A DNA stretch of 64,000 nucleotides from an uncultured bacterium (lineage in GTDB: Bacteria; Verrucomicrobiota; Lentisphaeria; Victivallales; UBA1829): assembly GCA_902802585.1 (NCBI GenBank), contig CADCMR010000005.1, positions 23,022 through 87,021 on the forward strand. Reading direction: 5' to 3'. The translations under genes and the position numbers were made by a program. This document shows positions 39,100-60,994 of the stretch, piece by piece. The number at the start of each line of letters is the position of its first letter. Within the stretch, counting starts at the first letter, position 1. Under the pieces are notes generated by a model. It saw only the letters and a program-made list of their open reading frames with translations, made no database searches and was not told the DNA's origin.

Positions 39100-39153
39100 A
39101 TGCACGGTAAGTCGTATGCCGGAGACGGCGGATAAACAGGCGGAGGCGCGGAA

Positions 39154-39960
39154 ATGGGGCTGGGTTTGAACGGCTCGAAATCAACGGAACGGGAAAAGAT
39201 TAAAGCTCCCGGGAAGGGGTTTCGCATGTTCGGTCCGGATATTTCCCCTGGCATGGACGAACTGCCGTTCCTGTCCGGATCGTTTTCCTCTCATGCCAAA
39301 ACGTATGCGAAGCTCCGTACATGTGCTATCAAGCGCATCCGCGTTCTTTCCGTGGACGGGAGCCCCGTTATCAAGCGATGGCTGGATATTTTCGGCAGTT
39401 TATTCGCGATTGTTCTGTTGCTGCCAGTATTCCTGGTTGTCGCGGTCTGGCTGAAACTTGATTCGCCGGGACCGCTCATATATCGGCAGATTCGCATCGG
39501 GCTGCACGGCCGCCCGTTTTATTTTTACAAATTCCGCTCCATGTACATCGACTCCGATGCTCGGCGGGCGGCGCTGCTGCAGGCGAACGAATCCAAGGAC
39601 GGCGTGATTTTCAAGATGAAAAACGATCCCCGCATCACGAGGTGCGGTCGGTTCATCCGGAAATACAGCATTGATGAATTCCCCCAGTTTTTCAATGTCC
39701 TGCTTGGCGACATGAGCCTGGTCGGGCCGCGTCCGCCTCTTCCGTCCGAGGTGGCTCAGTATTCGCTCGACGACTGGAAGCGGCTTGCCATTCTGCCGGG
39801 CATCACCTGCATCTGGCAGATTTCCGGGCGCAGCGACATCCCGTTCCGGGAACAGGTCGTGCTCGACAAGGAATACATACGGGGGCAGGGCTTCTGGAAG
39901 GACGTGCTGATCCTGTTCAAGACCATTCCGGCGGTCCTTGCCGGGAAAGGGGCGTACTGA
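39154..39960 (+). CDS. phosphoglycosyl transferase (bacterial sugar transferase, WbaP/PglC-type, initiating enzyme)
   Basis: Motifs GPLIYRQIRIG, YKFRSM, SIDEFPQFFNVLLGDMSLVGPRPP and PGITCIWQISGRSD. GGAGG ribosome-binding site 7 nt before the ATG at 39154; later in-frame ATGs at 39226 and 39253 are possible. Confidence 0.88.
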   Translation: MGLGLNGSKSTEREKIKAPGKGFRMFGPDISPGMDELPFLSGSFSSHAKTYAKLRTCAIKRIRVLSVDGSPVIKRWLDIFGSLFAIVLLLPVFLVVAVWLKLDSPGPLIYRQIRIGLHGRPFYFYKFRSMYIDSDARRAALLQANESKDGVIFKMKNDPRITRCGRFIRKYSIDEFPQFFNVLLGDMSLVGPRPPLPSEVAQYSLDDWKRLAILPGITCIWQISGRSDIPFREQVVLDKEYIRGQGFWKDVLILFKTIPAVLAGKGAY

Positions 39961-39961
39961 A

Positions 39962-44528: not shown

Positions 44529-44558
44529 CGCATTCTCTCCCCCGGAACTGGTGCGGAT

Positions 44559-45953
44559 ATGTCTATCCTGAAGATCATTGAATTTTCGTTTCTGTTTTTA
44601 TATTTGCTTCCGTTCATGACGGCATTGTGCTGTCTTTTTCCGGGTTTCCGGCATATCTGTTTCGCGGGAATGGTTTATTTCACCAGCAACGAGATCTCAA
44701 TCAATTTCGTGCCGATGCCGGACTGGAGAGGCACGGCACGTGGATATGCGTTTACAGGCGTGTCCCTTTTTGCCGTTCCGGTTCTGCTGAGCACGTTTTT
44801 TATGCCGCAGTATAAAGTGAAGCTGTTTCCACCGGGAACTTTTTTCTATTTCCTATACTATCTGGTGGTCCTGCTTTCCGGCATGAACGCGATCCACAGG
44901 CATCAATGGGGGTTTGAAGTTTACAAGATGTTCTGGATGTATGTCACATTTCTCACCACATTCAATTATCTGAACAACTGCAAGAATCTCAACTATTTCA
45001 TTTGTGTGGTGTGCTTTGTTCTGATCATCCTGTTTATAATCGGATTCAAACAGAAATACCTGGAGTCACGATTCCAGATCAGTTCGACCTTCCCGCACCA
45101 GAATTCGCTTGCGCTCTATCTGGAGGCTTTCGGGCTTCTTTCTCTGGGCGTCCTGATGAACGAACAGATGAACAAGTTGATGTTCGTGATCGTCCTCGGT
45201 GCGTTCGTCAGCTCCCTACTTCTTATCCTTTTTACATTTTCACGAGGCGGTTTCGTGATCTTTTTCGGCGGCATCGCCATTGTCTGCGCCCTGTCCAACC
45301 TGTGCAACGGTTTCTCGCTCAGGCGGCTGCTTCTGATGCTGATCGGACTGACATTCGTGCTGTGCGCCGTGGGATATGCGCTGCCGCGTATCATTCTGCG
45401 TTTCACGAAAGCCCCTGAATCCTCCAAGAACACCCGAATCGCGTTTGCTCTCGCTGCCAAGAGAATGGCAAACGATTATACGTTTGGCGTCGGTGCAAAC
45501 AATTTCAGCGAGTATTCCGGCGGGGACGGGAAATATGAATACGCAAGAGAGCTTTATCCCGTCGTATATCCAAAGTACGGAGGAATCGTCGAAACGATCT
45601 ATCTGCTTGTCGCCGCGGAATGCGGCTGGACCGGACTGGTCATTCTCCTCCTGTGGTTCATGTATTATTATATCTCGTCCATAATAAGTGTCGTTGTCCT
45701 CCGGAAAAAACCATGTTCCGGCATAGCGATCGGGGTGTTTGCCGGACTGACCTGCTGGTATTGGCATTCCTCGCTGGAATGGAGCCTGAAGCAATTCAAC
45801 AATTTTGCACAGCAAATGATCATATATGCCCTCATCGGAGTAATCGCCGTCAACCGGAAGAACATCAAGGCGGCCTATGCACGGATGTTGGCAAGACAGG
45901 CGGCGAGCCTTAATCAGGCAAAAGCGCTTCCCGCTTCGAATCCGCAACATTGA
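44559..45953 (+). CDS. O-antigen ligase/polymerase family membrane protein (Wzy-like)
   Basis: Polytopic and AT-richer. It has a Wzy_C-like FSRGGF...loop region and 464 aa. Confidence 0.75.
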   Translation: MSILKIIEFSFLFLYLLPFMTALCCLFPGFRHICFAGMVYFTSNEISINFVPMPDWRGTARGYAFTGVSLFAVPVLLSTFFMPQYKVKLFPPGTFFYFLYYLVVLLSGMNAIHRHQWGFEVYKMFWMYVTFLTTFNYLNNCKNLNYFICVVCFVLIILFIIGFKQKYLESRFQISSTFPHQNSLALYLEAFGLLSLGVLMNEQMNKLMFVIVLGAFVSSLLLILFTFSRGGFVIFFGGIAIVCALSNLCNGFSLRRLLLMLIGLTFVLCAVGYALPRIILRFTKAPESSKNTRIAFALAAKRMANDYTFGVGANNFSEYSGGDGKYEYARELYPVVYPKYGGIVETIYLLVAAECGWTGLVILLLWFMYYYISSIISVVVLRKKPCSGIAIGVFAGLTCWYWHSSLEWSLKQFNNFAQQMIIYALIGVIAVNRKNIKAAYARMLARQAASLNQAKALPASNPQH

Positions 45954-46048
45954 ACCTGGGATTTCCCGCAACACGCCTGATGTCTGCGCGGACAGTTTTT
46001 GATGCGGTGGTTCTGTTGGGCGGGATCCGTGCCGGACGCCGCTGGCTG

Positions 46049-48316
46049 TCAATGCGGAACCTTCATGCCGCGGATTTTCAGGGACGATCCTGCCTCCGGC
46101 TCCAGCACGATGCGGATCGGCCAAATGGCTTCGGCGTGGTAAATGGTGCCGGAGGATCCCGGATTCGGGGCGGGGATCAGCTTGGCAGGACTGTTCTTCA
46201 CCGGGATCAGGTAATCCTTCATGTCTTCGGAATCAACCTGGACGGATCCGATCTCCATTTCCTCCCAGGGGGCTTCCACAGACGATCTCCGTTCCGGAAT
46301 AATAGTCCGCATTGGCTCCGGTGAAGGCCGTGGTGCCGGCGGCGCTTCGCATGTGCCGGACAGGTCTTCCTCCCCGACCGTGCAGGAAGCCGTGCCGCTG
46401 AGTGCCGTGACCCTGGCATGGACCGTGCCCCGGCACAGGCGCAGGACAATCCGCCCCTTTCCTGATGCCCGGACGGTGATGCCCGCACCGCCGTTATCCC
46501 GGAAAACCACCCTGCTGAAGAGAAGCCATCGCCGTTCTTTTGCCTCGAACGCCTCCGTCCAGGACGCCGCGTCATGGATGCCGGTTCCGATGCGGGAGGT
46601 GTTCGGCCACTTCAGGTAGAGGTTCGGCGGCGCATTCCGGTCGGTCACCCACACAAACGCGGGCTTCGACATGTCCTGATAGGCGTCGCAGAGCTGGGCG
46701 TGGTAGGTGTTCCGGTCGGGCGAGGTGTATTCTTTCCGTTTCGTTTTGAACTCGTCGAAATCCGCATGCCCGCCGGTTTCCTTCTGGGCGCAGCAGAAAA
46801 TGCAATAGCGGAGCGCGAGCCAGTCGGAGAAGAACTCGCACGGCATTCCGAGCGGTTTGCCCAGCTTGATGAAGTGCTCCCCGCCGTCCGTGCTGTAGGA
46901 ATACTGCACGGCGTACTGGAGGAACGGGACGTCCGCTCGGACCACGACCTGCGTTTTTTCGCCGGATTCGAGCGGAACGGACGTAATTTCCTCCGTGGTG
47001 TATTTTCCGTCTTTGTTGAGCTGGCGCATCACGGCGAGCCGAGTTTTGCCGTTCTCTCGGACGGCGGCGACGAATGTGCAGTGCTGGGAGAAGAGTCCGA
47101 TCCCCGCCATGTCTCCGTCCTTCAGTCCGGAGTAGTCCAGCACGGTCTGCGCGGAGTCGCCCGGTCCGAAGATCTGCTGGACGAGCACGTTCTGCGTTTC
47201 ACGGATCGCGGAGGACGTGCGCTGCGGCTTCAGGCGGAGCCAGCCGGGACGTTCCGTGAGCGACCAGCCGTCCTCCGCTGGATGGTGGTTCCACTGCCAC
47301 TGCAAACCGAGTTCGTTTGAGCCGAAACGGTCGCTTCGCCAATGGTCGGGATTGATGGCGGGGCTTTTCGTATCGACGGCGGGCTTTTGGTATGTGAGGA
47401 CGGGTTTCACCTCGGGCCAGCCGTCCTTCCATTCCACGGGCAGCAGGAACGGGATGCGCCCGAGCTTGCCGTGGTCCTGGAAGATGATCGACCACCAGTC
47501 GCCGTTTTTGAGCTGCACGAGGCCGCCCTGGTGCAGTCCGGACCCCTCGTAGGTCAGCTGGGAATCGCACACGACCTTGTGTTCGTACGGTCCATAGACG
47601 CTGTCCGAGCGAAAACAGTGCTGCTTGCCGCCGCCGGGGTTGAAGATGTAGTATTTGCCGTCGATCCTGTAGACGTGCGAGCCCTCGCAGATCGTCCCGC
47701 GGATGACCGTCTTCTCCGGCGTGACGACCTTCGTCAGGTCGGCGTCGAGTTCGGTTACCTTCAGCTCGTTCTGCCCGTGGAACACGTAGACGCGGCCGTT
47801 GTCATCGAAGAACAGCCCCGGGTCGTACATCTTCGCCCGGATCGCGTTCATTTTCCACGGTCCCGCCACGTCTTTCGCGCGCGACACCAGGAACACGCCG
47901 TCCACGCCGGTCTTGTTTTCCGGTCGGTTGTCCCACACATAGCACACGGAGTAGAACATGCCGTCGTGGTAGCGCAATGAGGGCGCCCAGCTACCCGCCC
48001 CGTATGCGTTCCCGTGCTTGCCGTCGAGGTCGTAGCGCGGGTCTTCAAGGATTTTGTAATCGGGAATGGAGAACCCCGCCGGCTCTCAGTTCACCAGGTC
48101 GCGCGAATGCATGACCGGATTGCCGGGCACGAGGTGGAACGACGAGGACTGATAGTAGAAATCGTCGCCCACACGGATCACCTCGGAATCGGGGTAGTCG
48201 GCGAACAGGACCGGGTTGGAGTACGTGCCGTCGCCGTTGTCCGCCCCGAACGAGATCGAGGCGGAAACGGCGGACCATATCGCCAGTGCGATGACCGCGG
48301 CGGTGAACTTCTTTAT
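46049..48316 (-). pseudogene. GH43 beta-xylosidase/alpha-L-arabinofuranosidase with C-terminal lectin-like domains, apparently disrupted (ATA at start position; in-frame TGA at 48086-48088)
   Basis: The same frame reads (I)KKFTAAVIALAIWSAVSASISFG...NPVLFADYPDSEVIRVGDDFYYQSSSFHLVPGNPVMHSRDLVN-TGA-EPAGF...SWAPSLRYHDGMFY and continues into the 642-aa track ORF. The TGA sits where the conserved DLVNW Trp is expected. Confidence 0.75.
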
Positions 48317-48346
48317 GGCGGAGTTTGTTTCCTTTCCCCTGCTGGC

Positions 48347-50248
48347 TTACTTGTCCAGCGGGAGATACGCGGAGTAGTGCTCGTGGTAGACGTTGAAGAG
48401 CGGCATCAGCGTGAATTCGCCGTTCTTGCCCTGCGCGACGAACTCGCCGAAGTTCTTGCCTGGCTTGAACGCCTTGATCGCGGTCTCGGCGTCGGCTGCC
48501 GCCACGGTCGGGATCGGCTCATGCGTTTCGGGGCCCCACTGGTCCCTGTAGCGACGGAGCGCGGGGTCGTCGCCGGCCTTCGGCGGGATCACGGCGGCGA
48601 GGAGCAGCGGACCGTAGAAGAAGGCGACGTGCTTGCCGTCGGGGAGTGATTCGCTGTAGAGCGGGAAGTCGAATTCGATCTGGACCTTGTCGCCGTCCTT
48701 CCAGTTGCGGTAGATGGCGATGTAGCCGCGTTCGTCGGCGTCAGCCTTGACGGTGGAGCCGTTGACCTTCACGGTCATCTGCTTCGCCCAGACGGGCTTG
48801 CGGAGGTCGAGCGCGAACTTTTTCGCACTCTTGAGACCGAGCTTGATCTCGGCGGTCTTCGAGAGCGGGAAGGCGGACTTGAGCTCAAGATCGAGACCGA
48901 GCTTTTCGTCCTTCAGTTCGGCTGCCCAGTACTGGTTCACCGCCACGGTGCCAGCGCCGTCGGTGGCGAAGCTGATCTCGGTGTAGCGTTCCGGGTTCTC
49001 CATGCCGGACCCGACGCAGCACCACCAGGAGTTGAACTCGGTGGAGAAGACTTTGTAGTGCGGCGAACCGAGGGAGAGGAAGTAGCCGTATTCGCCCGGC
49101 TCCTTGCCGATGTTTGCGGCGATGTGGTTCAGCGTCACGCGTTCGGCGAAGTCCATCGGCTTCGTATTCTGGTTCCACTCGAAGACATGCGAGGCAATCT
49201 TGACCATGTTGAAGGAGTTGCAGGTCTCGGCGGTGTTCGGCTTCAGCGTGCGCGCCACGTCGTTCATGTCGTAGAAATGCTCGCTTTCGCTATGACCGCC
49301 ATTCGCGTAGGAGCGCTTCGTGGAGACTTCGTTGAAGAAGTATTCTGCGCCGGTGCGCGCCTTTTCGTCGCCCTCGACCTCATACAGGCGGGCGAGACCG
49401 GCGATCTTCGGAATCTGCGTGTTCGCGTGAATGCCGTTGAAGATATCGCGCTGTTCCTCCATCGCGCCGAGGATGCGGTTGTCGAAGAAGAAACGGCGTC
49501 CGGCTTCGGAATACTTCTTGTCGCCGGTGTCCGTGGTGAGGTCGACCATGACCTCAAGCATGCCGCCGTGCTCGGCGCGGAGCATGTTCTGCACCTGGTC
49601 GGGGCTGAGGTTGCTCAGTGCGGCGATCACGCGGTCCGCGAGCTTCTTCTCCACGTCGAGCGCCTTCTTGTTGCCGGTCAGGCGGTACGCGTCGCGGAGA
49701 CCGGCGAAGACTTTGTGGATGGAGTAGAACGGCACCCAGACGCCGTTCAGGTTGAACGGCTGCGGGCGCACCGTGCCGCGTTCGAGGTCGTTCAGCCAGC
49801 GTTCGTCCTCGGCGTGGACGTAGCCGGTGCCGAGCTTGTCCTGGCATTTCGCCAGTTCGTCGACGATATAGTCGGAGCGTTCCTTCGCCTTCTTGTTGCC
49901 GCCGTGCGCATACGCCATGCCGAGCGCGGAGAGGTAGTGACCAAGCGAATGGCCCGCGATGTCGCGCGCTTCCCAGCCGCCGTACGGGCGCGCCTTCGCC
50001 TCAAGTCCAGCCACCGTCAGGAATTTCGACAGCAGGGCGTCGGGGTTCAGCGTTTCCGTCAGGAAGACTTCGTTCACTTTCTTGCGGTCCGCCATCGGGC
50101 CGTCCTCAAGGTCCGTCGCATTGGACGGGTAGAACGTGAGTTTTCCGGGGGCGGGGGCGGGCTGGTCGTCGGCGGAGGCGCAGCTCACGGCTGCGGTTGC
50201 GGCGGCCGCGCAGATCGCGGCGGCGGCAATGACTGCTGCATGTTTCAT
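48347..50248 (-). CDS. GH127 beta-L-arabinofuranosidase-like (DUF1680) lipoprotein
   Basis: Motifs GHSLGHYLSALGMAY, NGGHSE and CCVGSGMENPERY. AGGAGA ribosome-binding site before the ATG at 50248 (MKHAAV...AVSC); alternative ATG at 50269. Confidence 0.88.
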   Translation of the reverse strand: MKHAAVIAAAAICAAAATAAVSCASADDQPAPAPGKLTFYPSNATDLEDGPMADRKKVNEVFLTETLNPDALLSKFLTVAGLEAKARPYGGWEARDIAGHSLGHYLSALGMAYAHGGNKKAKERSDYIVDELAKCQDKLGTGYVHAEDERWLNDLERGTVRPQPFNLNGVWVPFYSIHKVFAGLRDAYRLTGNKKALDVEKKLADRVIAALSNLSPDQVQNMLRAEHGGMLEVMVDLTTDTGDKKYSEAGRRFFFDNRILGAMEEQRDIFNGIHANTQIPKIAGLARLYEVEGDEKARTGAEYFFNEVSTKRSYANGGHSESEHFYDMNDVARTLKPNTAETCNSFNMVKIASHVFEWNQNTKPMDFAERVTLNHIAANIGKEPGEYGYFLSLGSPHYKVFSTEFNSWWCCVGSGMENPERYTEISFATDGAGTVAVNQYWAAELKDEKLGLDLELKSAFPLSKTAEIKLGLKSAKKFALDLRKPVWAKQMTVKVNGSTVKADADERGYIAIYRNWKDGDKVQIEFDFPLYSESLPDGKHVAFFYGPLLLAAVIPPKAGDDPALRRYRDQWGPETHEPIPTVAAADAETAIKAFKPGKNFGEFVAQGKNGEFTLMPLFNVYHEHYSAYLPLDK

Positions 50249-50519
50249 GTCTTGTTTCTCCTGATTCATGTGTGGTTGGGTTGTATGGAAACGAGTTCAG
50301 ATTCTGTTCGGAAACGGACGGCGAACGCGTGCGCGTTATGAGGCGCGCGGCATCCTCCGTCGGAAGATTTATATTCCGTCAATGCTTAATATACTATAGA
50401 AACGAAATTATGCTATTCCTTTTTCAAAGAAAAGCATACATTTTTTGATCATTTTGCCCGGAAGATGTTAATATAATCGTTATGTTAACGGTACATAACG
50501 GAAAAACTGTCTATCGAGT

Positions 50520-51488
50520 TCAGAACAGGTCGGGGTGGTCAGCGGAGGAGGAGGCTTTTTTCCGGGTGGAGGAGGTGAAGGCGAGGAAGGATTTCTGCGC
50601 GCCGGGTGTGATGGTATCATCGGGGCGGAGGTGACCGAGCAGGAGCGGAGACTTCGGGTCATGGTATTTGAAGTTCTCGAACGCCTTGCGCGGGTTCTGA
50701 TTGGCGTAACAGTATTTGCAGCCGTTGAGGCAGGTGTCGTACGCGCCGATGTCATGCGTTTCGATGCAGTGGCAGCCCGCGCGGATGCCATTGTGCTTGA
50801 GCTTGCGGAACTGCACGCCGTTTGCGCGGCCGAGGATGTCGAGCGTCATGCAGCCGGATGAGCTGATGCCGAAACGCGTGTAATCGCCGTCCGTGCCGCA
50901 GATCTGGATCGGGAATCCGAACCGGGCGGCGGTCGCGCCGAGGGATTCCGCGAGCTCGTTCCGGTAGGCGTCGTTCAGCGGGACCAACTCCGGCATGTTC
51001 GATTCGACCTTTCTGTACATCTCCACGAAGCTGAAGACGCAGCGGTCGATGTGGGATGCGAGGCGTTCCGCCATGCGCGCGAACGTGTTTTTGTGGCGTT
51101 CGATGGTGTAGGTCTTCGTGAGCAGGACGGGGGCGTAGCGCCATGCGACGCGCTCCCGCCCGACGATGGAAGCGAGTTCGTCGAGCGTCTCCATGCTTTC
51201 GGTGATGGACGGTACGCCCGGCTCCACGTCGCGTCCATAGGCGGTGATCGTGTAGAAACAATACGTGCGGAAGCGGTCCGTGATCTCGCGGATGCGCGGC
51301 AGGATCGGGCGGTAGTTCTTCGAGCAGAACACCACGCAGTCGACGACCTCCGGATCCAGCTCCCAGCGCGTAACCTTGTCCGGGAAGAGCGGATTCCGGG
51401 ACAGGACATAGCCCTCCGCGAACCGGTTCAGCAGCCAGTCCGTGAAATACTGGACCGTGTCGGTCCGTCCGCCCGTGTTGATGATCAT
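50520..51488 (-). CDS. DUF1848 domain protein
   Basis: N-terminus MIINTGGRTDTVQYF and C-terminal Cys cluster CHCIETHDIGAYDTCLNGCKYCYAN are typical of DUF1848. Confidence 0.8.
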   Translation of the reverse strand: MIINTGGRTDTVQYFTDWLLNRFAEGYVLSRNPLFPDKVTRWELDPEVVDCVVFCSKNYRPILPRIREITDRFRTYCFYTITAYGRDVEPGVPSITESMETLDELASIVGRERVAWRYAPVLLTKTYTIERHKNTFARMAERLASHIDRCVFSFVEMYRKVESNMPELVPLNDAYRNELAESLGATAARFGFPIQICGTDGDYTRFGISSSGCMTLDILGRANGVQFRKLKHNGIRAGCHCIETHDIGAYDTCLNGCKYCYANQNPRKAFENFKYHDPKSPLLLGHLRPDDTITPGAQKSFLAFTSSTRKKASSSADHPDLF

Positions 51489-51548
51489 GGGAAGTTCCGC
51501 ATGTTCCCGCGCACAGGATGAAATGACGCGGGGACGGATGGCGGTCCG

Positions 51549-54500
51549 TTACTGGTTGTCTTCGAGCTTCTTGTACTCGGCGTACTTCATCGCGGCGAGC
51601 TGTCTGCCGGTCTCGAAGAGCGTGGCGGCGTTCTCGGGGAAGGTACGTTCGAGCGCGGCGAAGCGGACTTCGCCCTTCAGGAAGTCGCGGTAATCCTTGG
51701 TCGGGGCGGGGGAATCCAGCGTGAATGGCTTCGTTTTCGACGGGTTGTAGCGGTAGAGGAACCAGTACCCGGCGTCGACGGCGGCTTTCATCTCCTGCTG
51801 GACGTTGCACATACCGCACTTCAGACCGTGGGTCATGCAGGGGGCGTAGGCGATCACGACGGACGGTCCGGGGAATGCCTCGGCCTCCTGGAGCGCCTTC
51901 ATGAGCTGGTTCGGGTCGGCGCCCATTGCGACGGACGCGACGTAGACGTTTCCGTAGGTCATGAAGATGCGTCCGAGGTCCTTCTTCGGGCTGCGCTTGC
52001 CGGAGCTGGCGAACTGCGCCACCGCGCCGATCTGCGTTGCCTTGGAGGACTGGCCGCCGGTGTTCGAGTAGACTTCGGTGTCCACGATCAGGGCGTTGAT
52101 GTTCTCGCCGCTGGCGATTACGTGGTCGAGGCCGCCGAACCCGATGTCGTACGCCCAGCCGTCGCCGCCGTACATCCAGAATGTCTTCTTGGCGAGCTGA
52201 TCGCGGTGCAGGAGGATGGCGTCGGCAAGTTCGGAAACCTCCTTGTCCGCCGCGAGGTCGGCGCGGGCGGATTCGAGCGCGGCGCAGAGGGCGTCGGTCG
52301 CGGTGCGCGAGGCGTCGAAATCGTCGAACGCGTCGAGCCACGCCTGAAGCGCGTTTTTGACGGATTCGGGCACGGATTTTTCAAGCAGAGCCTTCACGCG
52401 GATGACCTGCATCTCGCGCTGTTTCTTGGAAGAAAGCAGCATGCCGAGCGCGAACTCGGCGTTGTTCTCGAACAGCGAATTGGTCCACGCCGGACCGAAT
52501 CCGCGCTGGTTGACCGTGTACGGGATGCCGGGCATGGGCGAGCCCCACGCCTGTGAACACCCGGTGGCGTTCGCCCAGTACACGCGGTCGCCGAAGAGCT
52601 GGGTCAGCAGCTTGGCGTAGGGCGTTTCGCCGCATCCGGCGCAGGCGGCGGAGAACTCGAGGAGCGGACGGCGGAACTGGCTGCCCTTGACCGTGTAGGG
52701 GTTGAAGACGTCGGACTTGGCGGGGAGCGACAGCAGGTAGTTCCAGTTCGCCAGTTCGTGGTCGGTCTCGGCGTTCGGGGTCATGGCGAGCGCCTTTTCC
52801 TTCGCCGGGCAGACGGACGCGCAGACGCCGCATCCGGTGCAGTCGGCGGCGCTGATCTGGAGCGTGAAGACGTAGCCGGGCTTGCCGGTGGCGGGGATCG
52901 TGCGGAGCGGGGCGGGCGCGGCGGCGGCCTCCTCGGCGGTCAGCAGGTACGGACGCACCACGGCGTGCGGGCAGGAGAACGCGCACCGGTTGCACTGGAA
53001 GCACTTCGCGGGATCCCAGACGGGCACGTGGACCGCGATGTCGCGTTTCTCGTAGGCGGTCAGACCCATGTCGATCACGCCGTCCTCGTAGCCCTTGAAC
53101 GCGCTCACGGGCAGGTCATCACCCTTCTGGGCGTTGATCGGCTCCAGCAGGTTCGTGACAACGGCGGGGAGACCGGGACGCGCGGCGGGCGCGGGATCGG
53201 CAGCGTTCAGCCAGGATTCGGGCACGGGCGCCTCCACGAGGCTCTTCACGCCCTCGTCGATGGCGGCGAGGTTTCGGTTCACCACGTCGTCGCCCTTGGC
53301 GAAATAGGTCTTCTTCGCGGCGGCTTTCATGAACCCGACGGCGTCCTCCACGGGGATGACGTTCGCGAGGCGGAAGAAAGCGGCCTGCAGGACCATGTTG
53401 ATGTGGCTGCCGAGTCCGAGGCGCTCCGCGATGGCGACGGCATCGATCAGGTAGAGTTTCGCGTGGCGTTCGGCGAGCGTGCGCTTCACATGCGCCGGGA
53501 GCTTTTCGTCGAGCTCGGCGGGTGTCCACGGGCAGTTCAGCAGCAGCGTGCCGTTGGGCTTGAGCTCGCCCGCGACGTCGTACTTGGAGATGTACGTGGC
53601 GTTGTGGCAGCCGATGAAGTCGGCGGCTTTCACGTAGTAGGAGGAACGGATCGGGCTGTCGCCGAACCGGAGATGCGATTTTGTCACGCCGAACGATTTC
53701 TTCGCGTCGTACTCGAAATACGCCTGGGCGTACTTGGAGGTGTGGGCGTTGATGATGTTGACCGTGTTCTTGTTCGCGCCGACCGTGCCGTCTGAACCGA
53801 GACCCCAGAACTTGCAGCAGACGATGTGCTCGTCGTCGGGATAGAGCGGCGCTTCAATTGGGAGCGAACGGTGCGTCACATCGTCCACGATGCCGATGGT
53901 GAAGCTGTTCATCGGGGATTCGGACGCGAGGTTGCGGAAGACGGCTTCGATCTGCGCCGGGTCGGTGTCCTTCGAGGAAAGGCCGTAACGGCCGCCGTAA
54001 ACGGAGAGTGCGGCGGGATGCTTCGCCTCCGCCAGCACGGAGCGCACGTCCAGGTACAGTGGATCGCCTGCTGCGCCCATTTCCTTGCAGCGGTCGAGCA
54101 CGGCGATGCGCCTGACGGTGGCGGGCAGCGCGGCGAGGAAGTGTTCGGCGGAGAACGGGCGGTAGAGGTGGACCTGGAGGAAGCCGGTTTTGCCGCCGCG
54201 TGCGTTCAGCCAGTCGACGGTCTCGCGGATGGTTCCGGAGACGGAGCCCATGGCGACCACAACGTATTCGGCGTCGGGCGTGCCATAGTAGTCGAAGAGG
54301 TGGTACTGTCTGCCCGTCACGGACGCGATCTTGTCCATGCAGGACTGCACGATGCCGGGCAGCGCGTCGTAGAACGCGTTGTTCGCCTCGCGCACCTGGA
54401 AGAAAATGTCCGGGTTCTGCACGGTCGCGCGGAGCATCGGGTGTTCCGGGTTCAGCGCGTGGGCGCGGAACGCCTCAAGCGCCTTCAAGTCGACGAGCGG

Positions 54501-55082
54501 CTTCAGGTCGGCGTAGTCGATGGGCTCGACCTTGCTGAGTTCATGTGAGGTGCGGAATCCGTCGAAGAAGTGCAGGAACGGGATCAGCCCCTCGATGGCG
54601 GCGAGGTGCGCCACGGGCGCCAGGTCCATCACTTCCTGTGCGTTCGCGCTGGAGAGCATCGCGAATCCGGTCTGGCGGCAGTTCATCACGTCCGAATGGT
54701 CGCCGAAGATGGAGAGCGCGTGCGTGCCGACCGTGCGGGAGGCGACGTGCAGGACGCCGGGGAGGCGTTCGCCGGAGATGCGGTGCATGACCGGGATCAT
54801 GAGCATGAGCCCCTGGGACGAGGTGAAGGATGTGGAGAGCGCGCCTGCCTCGAGCGAACCGTGGATCGCGCCGATCGCGCCCGCTTCGGACTGCATTTCC
54901 ACCAGCGTCACGGTCTGTCCGAACACGTTCTTGCGGCCTTTCGCCGCCCATTCGTCGGTTTTTCCCGCCATCGGGGAGGACGGGGTGATCGGGTAAATGG
55001 CGGCGACTTCGGAAAACGCGTAAGCGGCGTAGGCGCACGCCTCGTTGCCGTCCATCGTGACAAACTGTTTCGCGGAACTCAT
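51549..55082 (-). CDS. nifJ: pyruvate:ferredoxin (flavodoxin) oxidoreductase, single-chain
   Basis: 1177 aa. Two ferredoxin motifs (CFQCNRCAFSCP, CTGCGVCASVCP) and a TPP-binding GDGWAYDIGFGGLDH...NTGGQ. Confidence 0.95.
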   Translation of the reverse strand: MSSAKQFVTMDGNEACAYAAYAFSEVAAIYPITPSSPMAGKTDEWAAKGRKNVFGQTVTLVEMQSEAGAIGAIHGSLEAGALSTSFTSSQGLMLMIPVMHRISGERLPGVLHVASRTVGTHALSIFGDHSDVMNCRQTGFAMLSSANAQEVMDLAPVAHLAAIEGLIPFLHFFDGFRTSHELSKVEPIDYADLKPLVDLKALEAFRAHALNPEHPMLRATVQNPDIFFQVREANNAFYDALPGIVQSCMDKIASVTGRQYHLFDYYGTPDAEYVVVAMGSVSGTIRETVDWLNARGGKTGFLQVHLYRPFSAEHFLAALPATVRRIAVLDRCKEMGAAGDPLYLDVRSVLAEAKHPAALSVYGGRYGLSSKDTDPAQIEAVFRNLASESPMNSFTIGIVDDVTHRSLPIEAPLYPDDEHIVCCKFWGLGSDGTVGANKNTVNIINAHTSKYAQAYFEYDAKKSFGVTKSHLRFGDSPIRSSYYVKAADFIGCHNATYISKYDVAGELKPNGTLLLNCPWTPAELDEKLPAHVKRTLAERHAKLYLIDAVAIAERLGLGSHINMVLQAAFFRLANVIPVEDAVGFMKAAAKKTYFAKGDDVVNRNLAAIDEGVKSLVEAPVPESWLNAADPAPAARPGLPAVVTNLLEPINAQKGDDLPVSAFKGYEDGVIDMGLTAYEKRDIAVHVPVWDPAKCFQCNRCAFSCPHAVVRPYLLTAEEAAAAPAPLRTIPATGKPGYVFTLQISAADCTGCGVCASVCPAKEKALAMTPNAETDHELANWNYLLSLPAKSDVFNPYTVKGSQFRRPLLEFSAACAGCGETPYAKLLTQLFGDRVYWANATGCSQAWGSPMPGIPYTVNQRGFGPAWTNSLFENNAEFALGMLLSSKKQREMQVIRVKALLEKSVPESVKNALQAWLDAFDDFDASRTATDALCAALESARADLAADKEVSELADAILLHRDQLAKKTFWMYGGDGWAYDIGFGGLDHVIASGENINALIVDTEVYSNTGGQSSKATQIGAVAQFASSGKRSPKKDLGRIFMTYGNVYVASVAMGADPNQLMKALQEAEAFPGPSVVIAYAPCMTHGLKCGMCNVQQEMKAAVDAGYWFLYRYNPSKTKPFTLDSPAPTKDYRDFLKGEVRFAALERTFPENAATLFETGRQLAAMKYAEYKKLEDNQ

Positions 55083-55214
55083 CGGATCGGGTCTCCTTGT
55101 TCGGTGTCAGTTCAGTTCAAGTCCAGATATTTTTCAGGTTGTCGCACGGATGCGGAAACCCGGCGGAAGCGCGATGTCCTCCGCCGGGAAACGCCGTCCG
55201 CGCGGCGGGAAAGT

Positions 55215-57707
55215 TCACTCGGCGACGATGCCGTCGACCTTCTTGATCTTGAGGCGGTTCACGGCATCCTCGCGCATCTTGTATTTGAGGATTTTGCCGG
55301 CGGCGTTCATGGGGAACTCCTTCACGAAGTCGACGTAACGCGGGACCTTGTACTTCGCCATGTGGGAGCGCACGAAGTCCTTCATTTCCTCCTCGGTCAT
55401 GGTCTCGCCTTCCTTCAGGATCACGCACGCCACGATCTCCTCGCCGTACTGCTCGTCCGGGATGCCGATCACCTGCACGTCGGAGACTTTCGGGTGCGTG
55501 TAGATGAATTCCTCGATCTCCTTCGGGTAGATGTTCTCGCCGCCGCGGATGATCATGTCCTTCAGGCGGCCGGTGATGCGGTAGTTGCCCTCGGGTGTGC
55601 GGAGCGCGAGGTCGCCGGTGTGGAGCCAGCCGTCGGCGTCGATGGCTGCGGCGGTCTCAAGCGGCATCTTGTAGTAGCCCTTCATGATGTTGTAGCCGCG
55701 AGCGAGGAATTCGCCGGGGACGTTGTCCGGGAGGTCTTTTCCGGTCGCGGGGTCCACGATGCGGCATTCGATTTCCGGCATGGCGCAGCCGACGGTCTCC
55801 ACGCGGACTTCGAGCGGGTCGTTGGTGCGGCTCATGGTGCAGCCGGGGGACGCCTCGGTCTGACCGTACACGATTACGATCTCGGTCATGTTCATCTTGT
55901 TCACGACGTCCTGCATGACCGCCACGGGGCAGGGCGAACCCGCCATGATCCCGGTGCGCATGTAGGAGAAATCGGTCTTCGGGAAATCCGCGTGCTCCAG
56001 CATGGCGATGAACATGGTGGGCACGCCGTGGAACGCGGTGATCTTCTCCTGGTTGATGCAGGCGAGGGCGGATTTCGGGGAGAAATAAGGCAGGGGGCAG
56101 AGGGTGGTGCCGTGCGTCATGGACGCGGTCATCGCCAGGACCATGCCGAAGCAGTGGAACATGGGGACCTGGACCATCATGCGGTCGGCGGTGGAGAGGT
56201 CCATGCTGTCGCCGATGCACTTGCCGTTGTTCACGACGTTGTAGTGGGTGAGCATGACGCCCTTCGGGAAACCGGTGGTGCCGGAGGTGTACTGCATGTT
56301 GCAGACGTCGTGGATGTCCACGGCGTCTGCGCGGCGGCGAAGCTCCTCCATCGGCACCTTGTGGGCATATTCCAGGGCTTCCTCCCAGGTCAGGCTGCCG
56401 GGCTGGCGGAATCCGACCGAGATGATGTTGCGGAGGAAGGGCAGGCGCTTTGCGTGGAGCGGTTCGCCCGCCTTTGTTTGCGCGAGCTCGGGGCAGAGCT
56501 CGTTCATGATGCCCGCATAGTCGGAATCGCGGTAGCCCTCGATCATCACGAGCGTGTGGGTGTCGGACTGGCGGAGCAGGTATTCCGCCTCCTGGATCTT
56601 GTACGCGGTGTTTACCGTGACGAGCGCGGCGCCGATCTTCGTGGTCGCCCAGAACGTGATGTACCACTGCGGCACGTTCGTCGCCCAGATGGCGACCTTT
56701 GCGCCGGGCTTCACGCCGAGCGCGATCAGCGCGCGGGCGAAGGTGTCCACGTCGTCGCGGAACTCGGAGTAGGTGCGCGTGTAGTCGAGCGTGGTGTACT
56801 TGAACGCGTACTGGTCGGGGAATTCGCGGACCATGGCGTCGAGCACCTGGGAGAACGTCTTTTCGATCAGGACGTCCTTCTTCCAGATGAACTTGCCGGT
56901 ATGGCGGTTGTTTTCGTAGAGGGTCGCCTTGGCGCGCGCCAGCTCGAACCGGCTCATGTAGCTTACGAACTGCGCGAAGATCACGTCGGGCGAGCTGATC
57001 TCCGCCTCCCACTTCGGGTCCCATTCGATGGAGATAAACCCGTCGTAGTTCACGGAGCGGAGGGCGTTCATCACGCGGTCGAGCGGGAGCGAGCCTTCGC
57101 CGACGATCGCGTGGACCTCGGCGCTCTCGGAGTCCTTCAGATGGACGTGCTTGATGTATGCGCCCAGGTTCTTGACCGTGGTCTCGGGCGTCTCGCCGCA
57201 GACGCGGTAGGGATAATGCAGGTCCCACAGCGCGGCGAGGTTGTCCGTCATGAAGCTCGCGAGCAGGTCGCCGAGCTTCAGCGTGTCGGCGTAGCAGCCG
57301 ACCGTCTCCACGAGCAGGACCACGCGGGACTGTTCGGCGAGCGGGAGGGCGCGGCCGATGAATTCACGGGCGGCGGCATCGTCGTCGTCGGTGTTTCCGC
57401 CTGCTTTCAGGCGGATGTAGGGCACATGCAGGCGGCGCGCGGTCTCCAGGCAGCGTTTAAGCTCGTCGAACGCGGCTTCCGGCTTCGCGGCGATGTCGTT
57501 CACGAGGTCGAGGCAGGAGATGCACAGGCCGTAGTTGCGGATTTTATGCTGGACGCCCGCGAGGCGTTCCGGCTGGAAATCGTTCCGGAGCTTCGGCGTG
57601 TCGATGCTGTGGATCTCGATCCCGTTGAACTTGTATTCCCGGGCGATCCGGACAAAATCGTCGAAGCTGTAGGATTCCCAACGATTGGTCGAGAACGACA
57701 GTTTCAT
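55215..57707 (-). CDS. fusion protein: xylose-isomerase-like TIM barrel (sugar phosphate isomerase/epimerase, AP_endonuc_2) plus AMP-forming acyl-CoA synthetase
   Basis: The ATG at 57707 overlaps the upstream stop (ATGA). The N-terminal ~260 aa read MKLSFSTNRW...GIEIH...YIRLKAGG...HLKD...ISIEWD. The C-terminal part has YTSGTTGFPKGVMLTH, YGQTEASP, GWLHTGDLA, GRLKDMIIRGGENIYP and AGKILK. Confidence 0.85.
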   Translation of the reverse strand: MKLSFSTNRWESYSFDDFVRIAREYKFNGIEIHSIDTPKLRNDFQPERLAGVQHKIRNYGLCISCLDLVNDIAAKPEAAFDELKRCLETARRLHVPYIRLKAGGNTDDDDAAAREFIGRALPLAEQSRVVLLVETVGCYADTLKLGDLLASFMTDNLAALWDLHYPYRVCGETPETTVKNLGAYIKHVHLKDSESAEVHAIVGEGSLPLDRVMNALRSVNYDGFISIEWDPKWEAEISSPDVIFAQFVSYMSRFELARAKATLYENNRHTGKFIWKKDVLIEKTFSQVLDAMVREFPDQYAFKYTTLDYTRTYSEFRDDVDTFARALIALGVKPGAKVAIWATNVPQWYITFWATTKIGAALVTVNTAYKIQEAEYLLRQSDTHTLVMIEGYRDSDYAGIMNELCPELAQTKAGEPLHAKRLPFLRNIISVGFRQPGSLTWEEALEYAHKVPMEELRRRADAVDIHDVCNMQYTSGTTGFPKGVMLTHYNVVNNGKCIGDSMDLSTADRMMVQVPMFHCFGMVLAMTASMTHGTTLCPLPYFSPKSALACINQEKITAFHGVPTMFIAMLEHADFPKTDFSYMRTGIMAGSPCPVAVMQDVVNKMNMTEIVIVYGQTEASPGCTMSRTNDPLEVRVETVGCAMPEIECRIVDPATGKDLPDNVPGEFLARGYNIMKGYYKMPLETAAAIDADGWLHTGDLALRTPEGNYRITGRLKDMIIRGGENIYPKEIEEFIYTHPKVSDVQVIGIPDEQYGEEIVACVILKEGETMTEEEMKDFVRSHMAKYKVPRYVDFVKEFPMNAAGKILKYKMREDAVNRLKIKKVDGIVAE

Positions 57708-59122
57708 TTGACACCTGCCTCGAAACAGATCTTGTTCACGGCGTCTATGTACGCACGGATGCCCGCGCCGACCACGTCGGTGGAGACGCCCTTGCCCGCG
57801 TACACCTTGTTCTCGTAGCGGAGCTTCACGATGGTCGTGCCCATAGCGGACGCGCCGCCGGTCACGGACTGGATCTGGAAGTCGTCGAGCTCGAAGTGGT
57901 GCTCGAGAATTTCCTCGATGGCGAGGAACGCGGCGTCGATCGGACCGTCGCCCGTGCCGTAGCCCTTCACCTCGGCGCCGTCGCGTTCGAGGATGACATG
58001 GGCGTAGGACGTGATTTCGTTGCCGGAGGTGATGACGAAGGATTTGAGGCGGTAGGTGGGCGGCACCTGGAGGGAGACCGTGGCGATGATGGCTTCCAGT
58101 TCCTTCGGACCGACCGCCTCCGTCTTCTTCTGCACAATGCGCTGGACGGAATCGTAGACGGAATCCAGCGCGAAATCGTCGAGGTCGTAGCCCATTTGGC
58201 GGACGGCTTCGGCGACGGCGTCGCGGGAATCGGACTTGGAGAGGCTGAAATTGAGCTCGCCGGCGGCAGGCTGATCGAAGCATTCGTCCTGTTCGGCGCG
58301 ACCGCTCAGGATTTGGCGGATCTGCTCGTAGGACTTTTCCAGTACGGTCATGTTGATGCCGCAGGACACGCCGAGGGCGTCGCCTTTCGCGCGGAAGACG
58401 TGCGCGATGCTGCGGAGGCTGGGTTCGTTCACGCCCGCGCAGGTGGTTTTGACCTGGGCGAATCCGGTGTCCACGCTGGCGAAGATGCACGCCGCCGCCA
58501 TGTGCAGGGCGTTGGAATACGCGAAGGAAAGCTTCACGTTTTTGAGCTCGGGCACGGCTTCGCTCAGCGAGGCGACGAACTTGTTGAATTCGTCGGGAAG
58601 CATGACGCCCGCGGTGTCGCAGACGGTGATGACGCCCGCACCGGATTCGATGCCGGCGCGGATGACCTGCGCCAGGAAGTCGGCTTCGGCGCGTGTGGCG
58701 TCCTGCAGCGAGAGCTCGACGTCCTCGCAGAGTTCGCGGCAGGCTTTCACCTGGGCGCGGATCATGTCGAGCACGACCGGCGGCTTCTTGTGGAACTGGT
58801 ACTCCATCTGCACCGTGGAAACGGGCGCGACCACGTTCAGGCGCGGGTGTTTCGCGGTGCGAAGCGCCTCCCAGGTATCCGGAAGAAGTTCCGGATCAAG
58901 GCCGACCGGGCAGGCAAGAACGCAGCGCGTCATAAGGGGAGCAAGCGTGTGAAGGAAAACAATGTCATTTTTCCCGTTCACGACCGGAGCCGTTTCAATG
59001 GCATCCACGTTCAGCTTGTCAAGCTGACGCGCCACCTCGATCTTTTCCTTAAAACTCAAGGAACTGCCATTGCACGCGGCTTGTTCGCGCAACGACACAT
59101 CGACGATTTCTATCTTTCTCAT
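57704..59122 (-). CDS. 2-isopropylmalate/citramalate synthase-like protein (HMGL-like TIM barrel plus LeuA_dimer domain) with degenerate active-site motifs
   Basis: Colinear with LeuA. The N-terminal DVSLREQAA stands in for DTTLRDGEQ, QDATR for EDAGR, and DTAG is retained. SFAYSNALHMAAA stands in for SVHTHDDLGLAVGN. The C-terminal GDGPIDAAFLAI...VSTDVVGAGIRAYIDAVN is conserved. Confidence 0.8.
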   Translation of the reverse strand: MRKIEIVDVSLREQAACNGSSLSFKEKIEVARQLDKLNVDAIETAPVVNGKNDIVFLHTLAPLMTRCVLACPVGLDPELLPDTWEALRTAKHPRLNVVAPVSTVQMEYQFHKKPPVVLDMIRAQVKACRELCEDVELSLQDATRAEADFLAQVIRAGIESGAGVITVCDTAGVMLPDEFNKFVASLSEAVPELKNVKLSFAYSNALHMAAACIFASVDTGFAQVKTTCAGVNEPSLRSIAHVFRAKGDALGVSCGINMTVLEKSYEQIRQILSGRAEQDECFDQPAAGELNFSLSKSDSRDAVAEAVRQMGYDLDDFALDSVYDSVQRIVQKKTEAVGPKELEAIIATVSLQVPPTYRLKSFVITSGNEITSYAHVILERDGAEVKGYGTGDGPIDAAFLAIEEILEHHFELDDFQIQSVTGGASAMGTTIVKLRYENKVYAGKGVSTDVVGAGIRAYIDAVNKICFEAGVK

Positions 59123-59201
59123 GGGCGTCTCCTTACGACGTTCGCCGCCCCTGTCCCGGCACCGCGCCGGACCATCGCGGCGGAAATGATTATAAACAAT
59201 T

Positions 59202-59230
59202 AATATACCACATCCTTATTGAAAATTCAA
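59202..59230 (-). promoter_or_regulatory. sigma70-like promoter (TTGAAT-N17-TATATT on minus strand) for the IPMS-like operon
   Basis: The hexamers were read on the reverse complement, about 75 nt upstream of the ATG at 59122. Confidence 0.5.
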
Positions 59231-59482
59231 GGCGAAACATGACCTCCGGTCTCATCTTTTTCCGTTTTGGACGACTGAAAAAGCTGAGGCAATTTTCAAC
59301 CGGTCCGGCACGGCATGTTTCCCCGGATTCAATTGTTTTTTCCCCTGCCGTCGGCTGTTCCCGCGACAGATCCGGAAACGCGAACCGGAATAATCTTTTT
59401 TGTCAGGGAAGAACCGAAGGCAAATAAGCTGTAGACAGCCACATCCGCGGCCCGTCCGGTGCTTTGCGGCTGTTTGGTTTCC

Positions 59483-60994
59483 TCAGCGGAGGAAGGACCC
59501 GTATCCGGCGAGTCCGGCGAGGATGCCTGAGACGATCTTGTTCTGATAGTCCGGCGAAGCGATTTTCTTGACCTCGGCGGCGTTGGAGAGGTAGCCGACT
59601 TCGACGAGGACTGCCGGGCAGGTCGCGTTTCCGATCACGTAGATCGCCTGGTGGCGTGTGCCGCGGTCGGTTCCGCCGGTCGCCGTGAGCATGCCCTTGT
59701 GGATTTCGTATGCCAGGCGCGAGCTGTTGGCGTCGAACTCGTTCGCGGACTGTTTTTCGATCTTGACCTTGGAGCCTTTCGTCTCGGTGCCGCCGACTGG
59801 GACAGCTCGGTAGGTCTCAATTCCGGCGGGGGTCTTGTTCGTGGAGGAATTGCAATGGATGGAGAGGTAGAGGTCGGGCTTGTACTTCTTGCAGAGCGCG
59901 GCGCGTTCCTGAAGCGTGGGATAGGTGTCCCCGGTGCGCGTCATGATCACGCGGAACCCGAGTTTTTCGAGCTGAGCCTGAAGGCGTTTCGCGATCTGGA
60001 GCGTGTAGACCTTCTCCTTGTGCGCGCCGTTGATCGCGCCGGGGTCGGTGCCGCCGTGTCCGGCGTCGATCATGATGGTCTTCATGCCGAGCTTGACGGG
60101 CGTCTTGTAGCGCAGGAGCGGGTCGAGGCAGGTCAGGAAATCGACCTCGGAGATGTACGGCTCGTTGTTCTTGAGGATCATCGGGTAGAGGAAATAGACC
60201 TGGACGCCGTTGACCGTGCCGTCGCGGTGCGCGGTGGAGAAGACCGCTTTGCGCGTCTTGTCGTAGATGGTCGCGCCGGAGACCTTGTTTGCGCTTTTCG
60301 TGTAGGCGAACGTGAGTCCGTAGTTGACGGCGACGTCCCGCAGGTGCACGTAACGGACCTTGTTCTGTGTGATTTTGCGGAGCTTCATGGTCGCGACGTC
60401 CTTGTCTTTCGGCGAGGTCGTCGCGGGCGCCGATGCCGCCGCGGCTGCTTTTTTCTTCGCGTCGGCTGCCTTTTGCGTCGCGACCGCCTTTTCGATCGCC
60501 TTCGCGCGTTCGATCGCCAGCTGGCGCTGCCGCTGAAGCTCCTCCGGGGAGAGGGTCTTTGCAGAGACGGGGTCTTCCTTCGCGGGCGGCGGGATGGATG
60601 CCGCGGGACCGGCGGCTTTCTGTGCGGCGGCTTTCTGTGCGGCAGCCTTTATGTCCTCCTCGACTTTCGCTTTTGCGGCGGCCGCGGCGGCTTCCTGCTG
60701 ACGACGGACGAGGTCAGCCTTGTACTGCTCCAGCGCGGCGCGTTCCGCGGCAAGCGCGGCGCGCATCCGTTCGAGGCGGGCGCGTTCGGCGGCGATCTCC
60801 TCGGCGGTCGGGAGCTTTGTTGCTGCCCCGGATGATGCATTCTGAACCGCGGTCTGCGCAGTGTTCTGCGCAGCCGTCTTGATTTTGACATCGGCGTCGG
60901 AAAGCGGGACGTCCGTGACGGTCTGCGCCATGACGGAAACGGATGCGAGAAGGGCGCAGGCGGCGAGGAAAGACGGGAGCAGGTATTTCGGCAT
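59483..60994 (-). CDS. N-acetylmuramoyl-L-alanine amidase (Amidase_3, AmiC-like) with long Ala/Lys/Gln-rich N-terminal region
   Basis: Signal peptide. IMIDAGHGGTDPGA, LSIHCNSS and VEVGYLSN motifs. Low-complexity coiled-coil-like N-terminal half. Confidence 0.88.
   Translation of the reverse strand: MPKYLLPSFLAACALLASVSVMAQTVTDVPLSDADVKIKTAAQNTAQTAVQNASSGAATKLPTAEEIAAERARLERMRAALAAERAALEQYKADLVRRQQEAAAAAAKAKVEEDIKAAAQKAAAQKAAGPAASIPPPAKEDPVSAKTLSPEELQRQRQLAIERAKAIEKAVATQKAADAKKKAAAAASAPATTSPKDKDVATMKLRKITQNKVRYVHLRDVAVNYGLTFAYTKSANKVSGATIYDKTRKAVFSTAHRDGTVNGVQVYFLYPMILKNNEPYISEVDFLTCLDPLLRYKTPVKLGMKTIMIDAGHGGTDPGAINGAHKEKVYTLQIAKRLQAQLEKLGFRVIMTRTGDTYPTLQERAALCKKYKPDLYLSIHCNSSTNKTPAGIETYRAVPVGGTETKGSKVKIEKQSANEFDANSSRLAYEIHKGMLTATGGTDRGTRHQAIYVIGNATCPAVLVEVGYLSNAAEVKKIASPDYQNKIVSGILAGLAGYGSFLR

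Follow-up and report, generated by a model that had tools for sequence, protein, structure and literature searches.

Bacteria of the rumen have been known since the 1960s to convert branched volatile fatty acids to branched-chain amino acids by reductive carboxylation, and the same acids are both growth factors for fiber-degrading bacteria of the rumen and additives in feed. The genes responsible for this conversion are poorly defined, which is of relevance to animal nutrition; the route itself is mentioned in PMC7356843. We describe here a two-gene module found in a 64,000-nt stretch of contig CADCMR010000005.1 (positions 23,022–87,021), hereafter called the window, the positions of which are used for all coordinates unless one of the orthologous loci compared with it (labelled L001, L003, L090 and so on) is named. 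The first gene (57704–59122, minus strand) specifies a 472-aa relative of 2-isopropylmalate synthase (LeuA, or IPMS) which appears to be a pseudoenzyme and which we call LeuAps. The second (55215–57707, minus strand) specifies an 830-aa protein in which a TIM barrel is fused to an acyl-CoA ligase. The interpretation which we prefer, and to which we would give a probability of about 0.45, is that the fusion protein serves as an isovalerate-CoA ligase specific to leucine synthesis: its product would be reductively carboxylated to 2-oxoisocaproate on the way to leucine, and the dead LeuA would be the leucine-sensing subunit of the ligase.

As in the classical rumen scheme, the clusters in which this module lies hold an acyl-CoA ligase, a ferredoxin-dependent 2-oxoacid oxidoreductase and an aminotransferase of the IlvE type, and their carriers derive from gut and rumen samples; a dead LeuA and a TIM barrel, in contrast, stand outside that scheme. 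MbcS, the methylbutyryl-CoA synthetase of Staphylococcus aureus, is likewise an AMP-forming ligase for environmental short branched acids (PMC10026030), and MbcS-like genes are present in the same clusters. The fusion protein, however, falls with another subfamily of ANL ligases (PRK12583-like) and bears an N-terminal TIM barrel and a LeuA-like partner, whereas MbcS feeds lipid synthesis, prefers 2-methylbutyrate and isobutyrate, and makes poor use of isovalerate (PMC10026030).

LeuAps shares with LeuA its three-part architecture and fold, the closest matches being 3rmj, 3eeg, 1sr9 and 3fig, and a well conserved regulatory domain. Unlike LeuA, members of the LeuAps family lack the metal ligands (Asp and HxH), the catalytic Glu and the GERAGN motif, lie far under every LeuA equivalog cut-off, and are always partnered by the ligase rather than by leuBCD. 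Regulatory subunits of this general kind are familiar: HisZ is a dead HisRS paralog which acts as the histidine-sensing regulatory subunit of HisG (ATP-PRT), and IlvN and IlvH are regulatory subunits of acetohydroxyacid synthase. The logic proposed for LeuAps would be the same, in that a noncatalytic paralog or small subunit binds the end product and exerts feedback upon the committed enzyme; here, however, the donor fold is LeuA and the target an ANL ligase, and both the complex and the binding of an effector are proposals.

An earlier reading of the window, made without database searches (the sequence-only reading), had not recognized this combination of genes as a described pathway. This was borne out, since the literature searched contained no description of the module, of a LeuA pseudoenzyme, of clusters of ligases with four-subunit oxidoreductases, or of such genes in a branched-acid route. 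A search on YngI gave surfactin-related work only.

The LeuA-like protein and the ligase fusion

LeuAps possesses HMGL-like (120 bits) and LeuA_dimer (109 bits) motifs in Pfam, the second match extending over profile positions 3–130 of 131. It is made up of a seemingly dead DRE-TIM barrel (residues 1–270), a linker, and a LeuA_dimer regulatory domain (approximately residues 346–472), and its score against the best NCBIfam model, NF002086, is 302 bits as compared with the LeuA equivalog cut-off of 532. When aligned with the IPMS of N. meningitidis (3rmj), the protein of the window has REQAA where LeuA has RDGEQ, Gln for the catalytic Glu of the E-D-A motif, and A-Y-S for the HxH metal ligands, while the GERAGN motif is replaced and shortened. 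A sample of 79 family members from related loci gave the same picture. No member has His at either HxH position; the position of the metal Asp is Glu in 28 of the 79 and otherwise mostly non-acidic; the catalytic Glu position is variable and mostly hydrophobic; and no conserved replacement constellation was found in the active site. Mean pairwise identity in the family is 66% for the regulatory domain versus 42% for the barrel. The regulatory domain retains the GDGP(I/V)DA loop, and the barrel some conserved motifs (MEY, DATRxE and CD). To judge from these alignments LeuAps is catalytically dead across the whole family and conserved in its regulatory domain, so that the term used in the sequence-only reading, a degenerate or catalytically altered IPMS-like protein, was correct and indeed understated.

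The AlphaFold2 model of LeuAps (pLDDT 84.5 overall, approximately 90 in the barrel) can be superposed on the full-length LeuA of M. tuberculosis, the entry with bound leucine (3fig) among them, and Foldseek also returned 3rmj and 1sr9. The leucine feedback site of IPMS is located in the C-terminal domain (PMC10464499, PMC9860122). Searches of the PDB with the regulatory domain of LeuAps gave no useful match from the single sequence, and with the family profile only the regulatory domain of CimA, weakly.

The C-terminal part of the fusion protein (residues 279–830; 55215–56873, minus strand) is an AMP-forming acyl-CoA ligase domain of the PRK12583/ACSF2-like kind, with Pfam matches to AMP-binding (305 bits) and AMP-binding_C (75 bits). 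Against the PRK12583 model NF009233 it scores 699 bits over profile positions 13–557 of 558, which lies below the cut-off of 832; the domain would accordingly rank as a close relative of this fatty-acid-CoA ligase subfamily and, by the curated threshold, a non-member. The ANL core motifs are all present, namely YTSGTTGFPKG, VYGQTE, RLKDMIIRGGENIYP (hinge/A8) and AAGKILK with the A10 catalytic Lys, and each is at least 90% conserved among 72 sequences. The acyl pocket of acetyl-CoA synthetase is marked by a Trp. The fusion ligase has Gly at that position (YGQTE), which suggests that its acyl substrate is larger than acetate. The ligase domain seems to be the sole consistently catalytic part of the two-gene module. 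Public annotations go no further than "AMP-binding protein", "fatty-acyl-CoA synthase", "hypothetical protein" or "2-isopropylmalate synthase". That TIM barrel and acyl-CoA synthetase form one protein, as the sequence-only reading had it, was confirmed by the Pfam domains on the single 830-aa open reading frame (ORF).

An alignment scan with the TIM domain, taking one genome per species, found it in at least 598 genomes. The best 80 carriers are nearly all metagenome-assembled genomes (MAGs) from gut or rumen and comprise Lentisphaeria/Victivallales, Thermoguttaceae and many Clostridia, the last including Oscillospiraceae, Acutalibacteraceae, Ruminococcus, Christensenellaceae and Lachnospiraceae; Synergistaceae and Coriobacteriales appear among protein matches. 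LeuAps lies directly upstream of the fusion gene in all 77 loci with at least 1.5 kb of upstream DNA (tblastn map), the two genes overlapping or standing a few nucleotides apart, and the pair is carried by Lentisphaerota, Planctomycetota, several families of Bacillota, Synergistota and Coriobacteriales. The conserved unit is therefore a two-gene module of LeuAps and fusion, and the tight coupling of the two which had been proposed from the window extends to related genomes. In short, this combination of an ANL ligase, a barrel fused to it and a pseudo-LeuA as partner has a very wide distribution among anaerobes of gut and rumen. Between the window and loci L001–L088 (Lentisphaerota, Planctomycetota and Bacillota) the ligase domain is 70–84% identical across phyla and both barrels only 38–59%, which points either to horizontal transfer in recent times between organisms of gut and rumen or to an unusually strong constraint upon the ligase.

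L089 (10001–12564) is a decayed copy in which the fusion is split into three ORFs with a DDE transposase nearby, and no LeuA-like gene was found upstream of it. In the Thermoguttaceae (Planctomycetota) locus L012 (12998–17599) the pair is followed by a 1533-aa protein which consists almost entirely of ankyrin repeats.

Leucine T-boxes and a proposed route from isovalerate

T-box leaders are situated immediately upstream of LeuAps, and all 10 of those tested pass the Rfam gathering score, at 93–130 bits. Of 61 Bacillota loci, 31 have the T-box core motif in the 450 nt preceding LeuAps, and L090 has it as well; elsewhere in these 20-kb loci the motif is almost absent. In the model alignment the specifier triplet CUC adjoins the conserved purine and the closing helix (GGAA/UUCC), and over 32 leaders the specifier is CUC in 31 and CUG in one, that is, a leucine codon in every case. 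A T-box switches genes on when its cognate tRNA is uncharged. From the presence of a leucine T-box upstream we conclude that in these organisms the pair serves the supply of leucine. Loci of the type of L035, L040, L072 and L079 have the T-box between ilvE and LeuAps, which implies that only the pair is leucine-specific and that the oxidoreductase and IlvE are shared.

Neighboring genes were counted within 10 kb in the 34 loci with full flanks. A ferredoxin-dependent 2-oxoacid oxidoreductase of any type lies near the pair in 23 of these, a four-subunit enzyme (VOR) in 17 and a pyruvate:ferredoxin oxidoreductase (PFOR) in six, and an IlvE-type aminotransferase is present in 15. An HTH-cupin gene with a second ligase occurs in 17 loci, as does Amidohydro_2, and DUF1848 in one. 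For the oxidoreductase alpha subunit (PORa) of the neighbor set the VorB subfamily model gives 539 bits (cut-off 399), for the Aminotran_4 protein the IlvE model gives 479 bits (cut-off 307), and the additional ligases are closest to MbcS (all NCBIfam); several loci have exactly three ligases and one VOR. The type of oxidoreductase follows lineage, being NifJ-type PFOR in Lentisphaeria and the VorB-type four-subunit enzyme in Clostridia. The window shows ligase and PFOR, and many Bacillota loci the set of ligase, VOR and IlvE. The sequence-only reading had linked the pair to PFOR and DUF1848 and thereby to pyruvate oxidation. Across phyla the pair does keep a link with a ferredoxin-dependent 2-oxoacid oxidoreductase, whereas DUF1848 is not part of it; and the specific tie to pyruvate is disfavored, since the partner outside Lentisphaeria is a VorB-type enzyme accompanied by IlvE and the T-boxes point to leucine.

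On the interpretation given at the outset, the acid activated by the ligase would be short and branched, most likely isovalerate, and the product isovaleryl-CoA. A ferredoxin-dependent 2-oxoacid oxidoreductase, the adjacent PFOR in Lentisphaeria or the VorB-type enzyme in Clostridia, would then reductively carboxylate isovaleryl-CoA to 2-oxoisocaproate, from which a branched-chain aminotransferase would yield leucine. The PFOR of the window might perform the carboxylation itself or might supply CO2 and reduced ferredoxin. LeuAps would act as a leucine-sensing regulatory subunit by way of its retained amino-acid-binding regulatory domain, docking on the ligase through the N-terminal TIM barrel, such that activation of the acid is shut off when leucine is plentiful. 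What we infer in this scheme is the acid that is activated, the direction in which carbon flows, the complex of the two proteins and the binding of leucine, and likewise that the T-box-less Lentisphaeria copy in the window works in the same way. The weakness of MbcS toward isovalerate, mentioned above, would leave this acid to the fusion protein and fits a division of labor in loci with three ligases and one VOR.

The suggestion of the sequence-only reading, an uncharacterized acyl-activation or C-C bond pathway tied to pyruvate oxidation, is thus close as regards an acid being activated and then reductively carboxylated; an uncharacterized acyl-activation module linked to a ferredoxin oxidoreductase remains, and it is the emphasis on pyruvate oxidation and DUF1848 which gives way to leucine supply. 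Should our interpretation be correct in full, the regulatory role of LeuAps included, the module would supply the missing genetics of the rumen isovalerate-to-leucine pathway, would represent a new class of pseudoenzyme-regulated ANL ligase, and would mark gut and rumen anaerobes which depend upon branched volatile fatty acids. A dead LeuA regulating an enzyme unrelated to it would be a plain example of a pseudoenzyme that has been exapted, and a new means of controlling an ANL ligase. A widespread module tied to leucine starvation would help to predict the consumers of isovalerate among uncultured gut and rumen organisms, and to explain cross-feeding between amino-acid fermenters and fiber degraders.

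Alternatives to the proposed leucine route

The most serious alternative concerns the NifJ-type PFOR of the window (51549–55082, minus strand; 1177 aa), which matches TIGR02176 at 1696 bits versus a cut-off of 911. Its position next to the pair might be no more than lineage-specific synteny or loose co-regulation, for instance in the supply of CO2 and reduced ferredoxin, in which case it would be a housekeeping enzyme that does not act upon the product of the ligase. The protein retains the substrate-site residues of the D. africanus enzyme (the equivalents of T31, R114 and I123), which are those of the pyruvate-specific PFORs of D. africanus and M. thermoacetica. A PFOR follows the pair almost only in Lentisphaeria/Victivallales (13 loci, the window included, and one locus of Peptococcaceae), a second, VOR-like oxidoreductase comes directly after the PFOR in L005, and in the window the PFOR is preceded by a gap of 132 nt containing a hairpin. 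Synteny of this kind accords poorly, however, with the persistence of the trio of LeuAps, fusion and PFOR in Lentisphaeria at 46–57% LeuAps identity while the genes outside it differ, or with a fusion–PFOR gap of only about 25–55 nt in most other Lentisphaeria loci. Nor would one expect the PFOR to lie between the fusion and an MbcS-like ligase, as it does in L001 and similar loci, or the order fusion–ilvE–PFOR seen on the Peptococcaceae contig L084. The porA enzyme of C. sporogenes, which we take to be NifJ-type, provides a precedent for branched substrates. It is reported to drive the conversion of branched-chain amino acids to branched acids, as cited in PMC12520484. All told we consider mere synteny unlikely, if still deserving of attention.

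A second alternative would credit both barrels with a new enzymatic chemistry. LeuAps, the TIM domain or both, together with Amidohydro_2, would make the substrate of the ligase from some other precursor or would process its product, and the module would be a new leucine-related pathway instead of a regulated ligase. The N-terminal domain of the fusion (residues 1–278; 56874–57707, minus strand) is xylose-isomerase-like. It matches AP_endonuc_2 at 85 bits (cut-off 31), and its AlphaFold2 model has a mean pLDDT of 92.8. The nearest solved folds are AsbF, IolI, UlaE and D-tagatose 3-epimerase, with TM-scores of approximately 0.7–0.77 to the first three. With these it shares the fold and, in the window, the four metal ligands (E134, D162, H189 and E228), which are also present in 70–72 of the 72 close relatives. 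It differs from them in having only 14–21% identity, in being always fused to a ligase, and in that at least one of the ligands has been lost in 34 of 65 more distant relatives. Degenerate clades among the latter (proteins P0142–P0238) are characterized by E134K ("KDHE", 17 sequences) or by D162N with E228V ("ENHV", about 10), and the ENHV member L090 (6538–7848) nevertheless retains LeuAps, the leucine T-box, VOR and IlvE. Loss of the ligands in so complete a context suggests that canonical barrel catalysis is not a conserved feature of the family.

The intact ligands of the window and its close relatives thus speak for new chemistry, as do the presence of Amidohydro_2 near the pair in half of the fully flanked loci and the well folded LeuAps barrel with its remaining motifs. 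The absence of any replacement constellation in LeuAps, the ligand losses just described, and the absence of Amidohydro_2 from the loci of the Planctomycetes–Verrucomicrobia–Chlamydiae (PVC) group speak against it, and we regard this alternative as improbable. Sugar isomerization was rejected as the conserved role of the TIM domain in view of the ligand losses seen in about half of its more distant relatives, and the sugar-phosphate-isomerase character which had been read into the barrel is probably a red herring. An AsbF-style aromatic-acid scheme (dehydroshikimate dehydratase, aryl ligase and Amidohydro_2 decarboxylase) was also considered, and was dropped because no aromatic-pathway neighbor was found and the T-boxes are specific for leucine. 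Among P0142–P0238 there is no variation at E31, H189 and D192 and almost none at E204; this different conserved site may be the functional one. A search of a representative library returned stand-alone relatives of the TIM domain at about 30–35% identity. Its best sequence match in the PDB is "Art22", a name for which the literature search found unrelated papers only.

The distances of the LeuAps barrel and of the TIM domain are correlated (r = 0.87; partial r = 0.79 given the acyl-CoA synthetase domain), more strongly than is either domain with its own covalently linked partner domain, and this hints at a contact between the two barrels. We might suggest, tentatively and with less assurance than the overall route, that a dead LeuA has been exapted as a leucine sensor which docks on an often degenerate TIM barrel and exerts end-product feedback upon the committed step from isovalerate to leucine.

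According to a third alternative, scavenging of branched or short acids by the ligase would serve other ends, such as primers of branched membrane fatty acids or a general supply of acyl-CoA, with no special tie to leucine. The MbcS-like neighbors, the precedent of MbcS in S. aureus (PMC10026030) and the annotation of the ligase subfamily as nothing other than fatty-acid-CoA ligase would all agree with this. Against it stand the induction of the operon by uncharged tRNA-Leu, the derivation of the partner protein from LeuA, and the adjacent IlvE and VOR, and we find it distinctly improbable. A catabolic cluster, fermenting leucine or other branched-chain amino acids oxidatively to branched acids, is very improbable indeed: IlvE with an oxidoreductase could equally form an oxidative route (the porA precedent), but ANL AMP-forming ligases consume ATP and would conserve no energy in that direction, and the T-box turns the genes on at scarcity of leucine, not abundance.

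Several points weigh against the isovalerate-to-leucine interpretation itself. The window and the other PVC loci showed neither a T-box nor a leucine leader peptide when their upstream regions were searched (Rfam and a leader search), and half of the Bacillota loci show no T-box. At its substrate site the PFOR of the window looks like a canonical pyruvate enzyme, and the stretch of the window that was compared (approximately 44–64 kb) yielded no ilvE or VOR homolog. The frequent company of Amidohydro_2 is left unexplained, as is the fusion to a ligase of a TIM barrel which in the window has its metal-binding residues intact. The correlation between the barrels is confounded by phylogeny and evolutionary rate, and the PDB searches with the LeuAps regulatory domain provided no residue-level map of a leucine pocket. 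Finally, the top homologs are all MAG proteins named only "AMP-binding".

The locus in the window and its surroundings

The sequence-only reading had described a string of four minus-strand genes, and the ORF list, Pfam and NCBIfam bear out their coordinates and domains. LeuAps and the fusion share ATGA at 57704–57707, and the gaps which follow, put at about 130 and 60 nt, are 132 nt between fusion and PFOR and 60 nt between PFOR and the DUF1848 gene (50520–51488, minus strand; Pfam, 301 bits). The longer gap does contain the weak hairpin that had been noted, CCCGGCGGA-N12-TCCGCCGGG (55159–55188, minus strand), which is GC-rich with a 9-bp stem and a 12-nt loop; it is followed only by TTTCC, without a U-run, and was not called by the terminator scan. 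Approximately 80 nt upstream of the LeuAps start there is a sigma-70-like match, TTGAAT-17-TATATT with a TG (59202–59230, minus strand). This promoter-like element is real as a site, and is the sole minus-strand match in 50200–59600, but such matches are not above chance (two found versus 1.6 expected from shuffles). Just past the DUF1848 stop lies a terminator-like hairpin (50478–50500, minus strand), a consensus match only, in which an 8-pair stem is followed by ATTATATT; it is a possible end of the transcription unit.

The DUF1848 gene, co-directional with the genes upstream, is probably co-transcribed with them in the window. DUF1848 stands beside the trio only in the window, L009 and L011, the closest relatives of the window at 88–89% identity, and was rejected as part of the conserved unit on its occurrence in a single fully flanked locus. 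The closest relatives of the window are MAGs of Lentisphaeria and Victivallales from the rumen. On the same strand as DUF1848, and immediately downstream of it, are genes for GH43 and GH127 (beta-L-arabinofuranosidase) at 46049–50269, consistent with an organism degrading plant polysaccharides in the rumen. The region 38000–46000, in which GC is low (0.49–0.52 versus about 0.60 elsewhere), specifies an exopolysaccharide cluster whose products include a sugar transferase, a hexapeptide transferase, a Poly_export/SLBB exporter and a Wzy-like ligase.

In the clusters of other organisms a protein with HTH_19 and Cupin_2 motifs is always encoded immediately ahead of an MbcS-like ligase, and two such pairs often occur in tandem (18282–20620 in L003; 17507–19819 in L001); Lentisphaeria have both parts in a single fused protein of 770 aa. 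This arrangement, reminiscent of BirA, may represent another way, within these clusters, of joining a sensor to a ligase. A gene of 222–228 aa always precedes the ferredoxin and VOR genes (14925–15611 in L003, with equivalents in 25 loci); it has no strong family match, only weak ones to the P-loop proteins CbiA, ParA and NUBPL, and its product may serve the oxidoreductase in Fe-S maturation or as an accessory ATPase. A minimal operon consisting of a leucine T-box, LeuAps, the fusion and Amidohydro_2 is found in L058 (5402–8491) and in seven other loci of Acutalibacteraceae, where it is followed by genes of the methionine pathway, namely a Cys_Met_Meta_PP enzyme and a homoserine O-acyltransferase.

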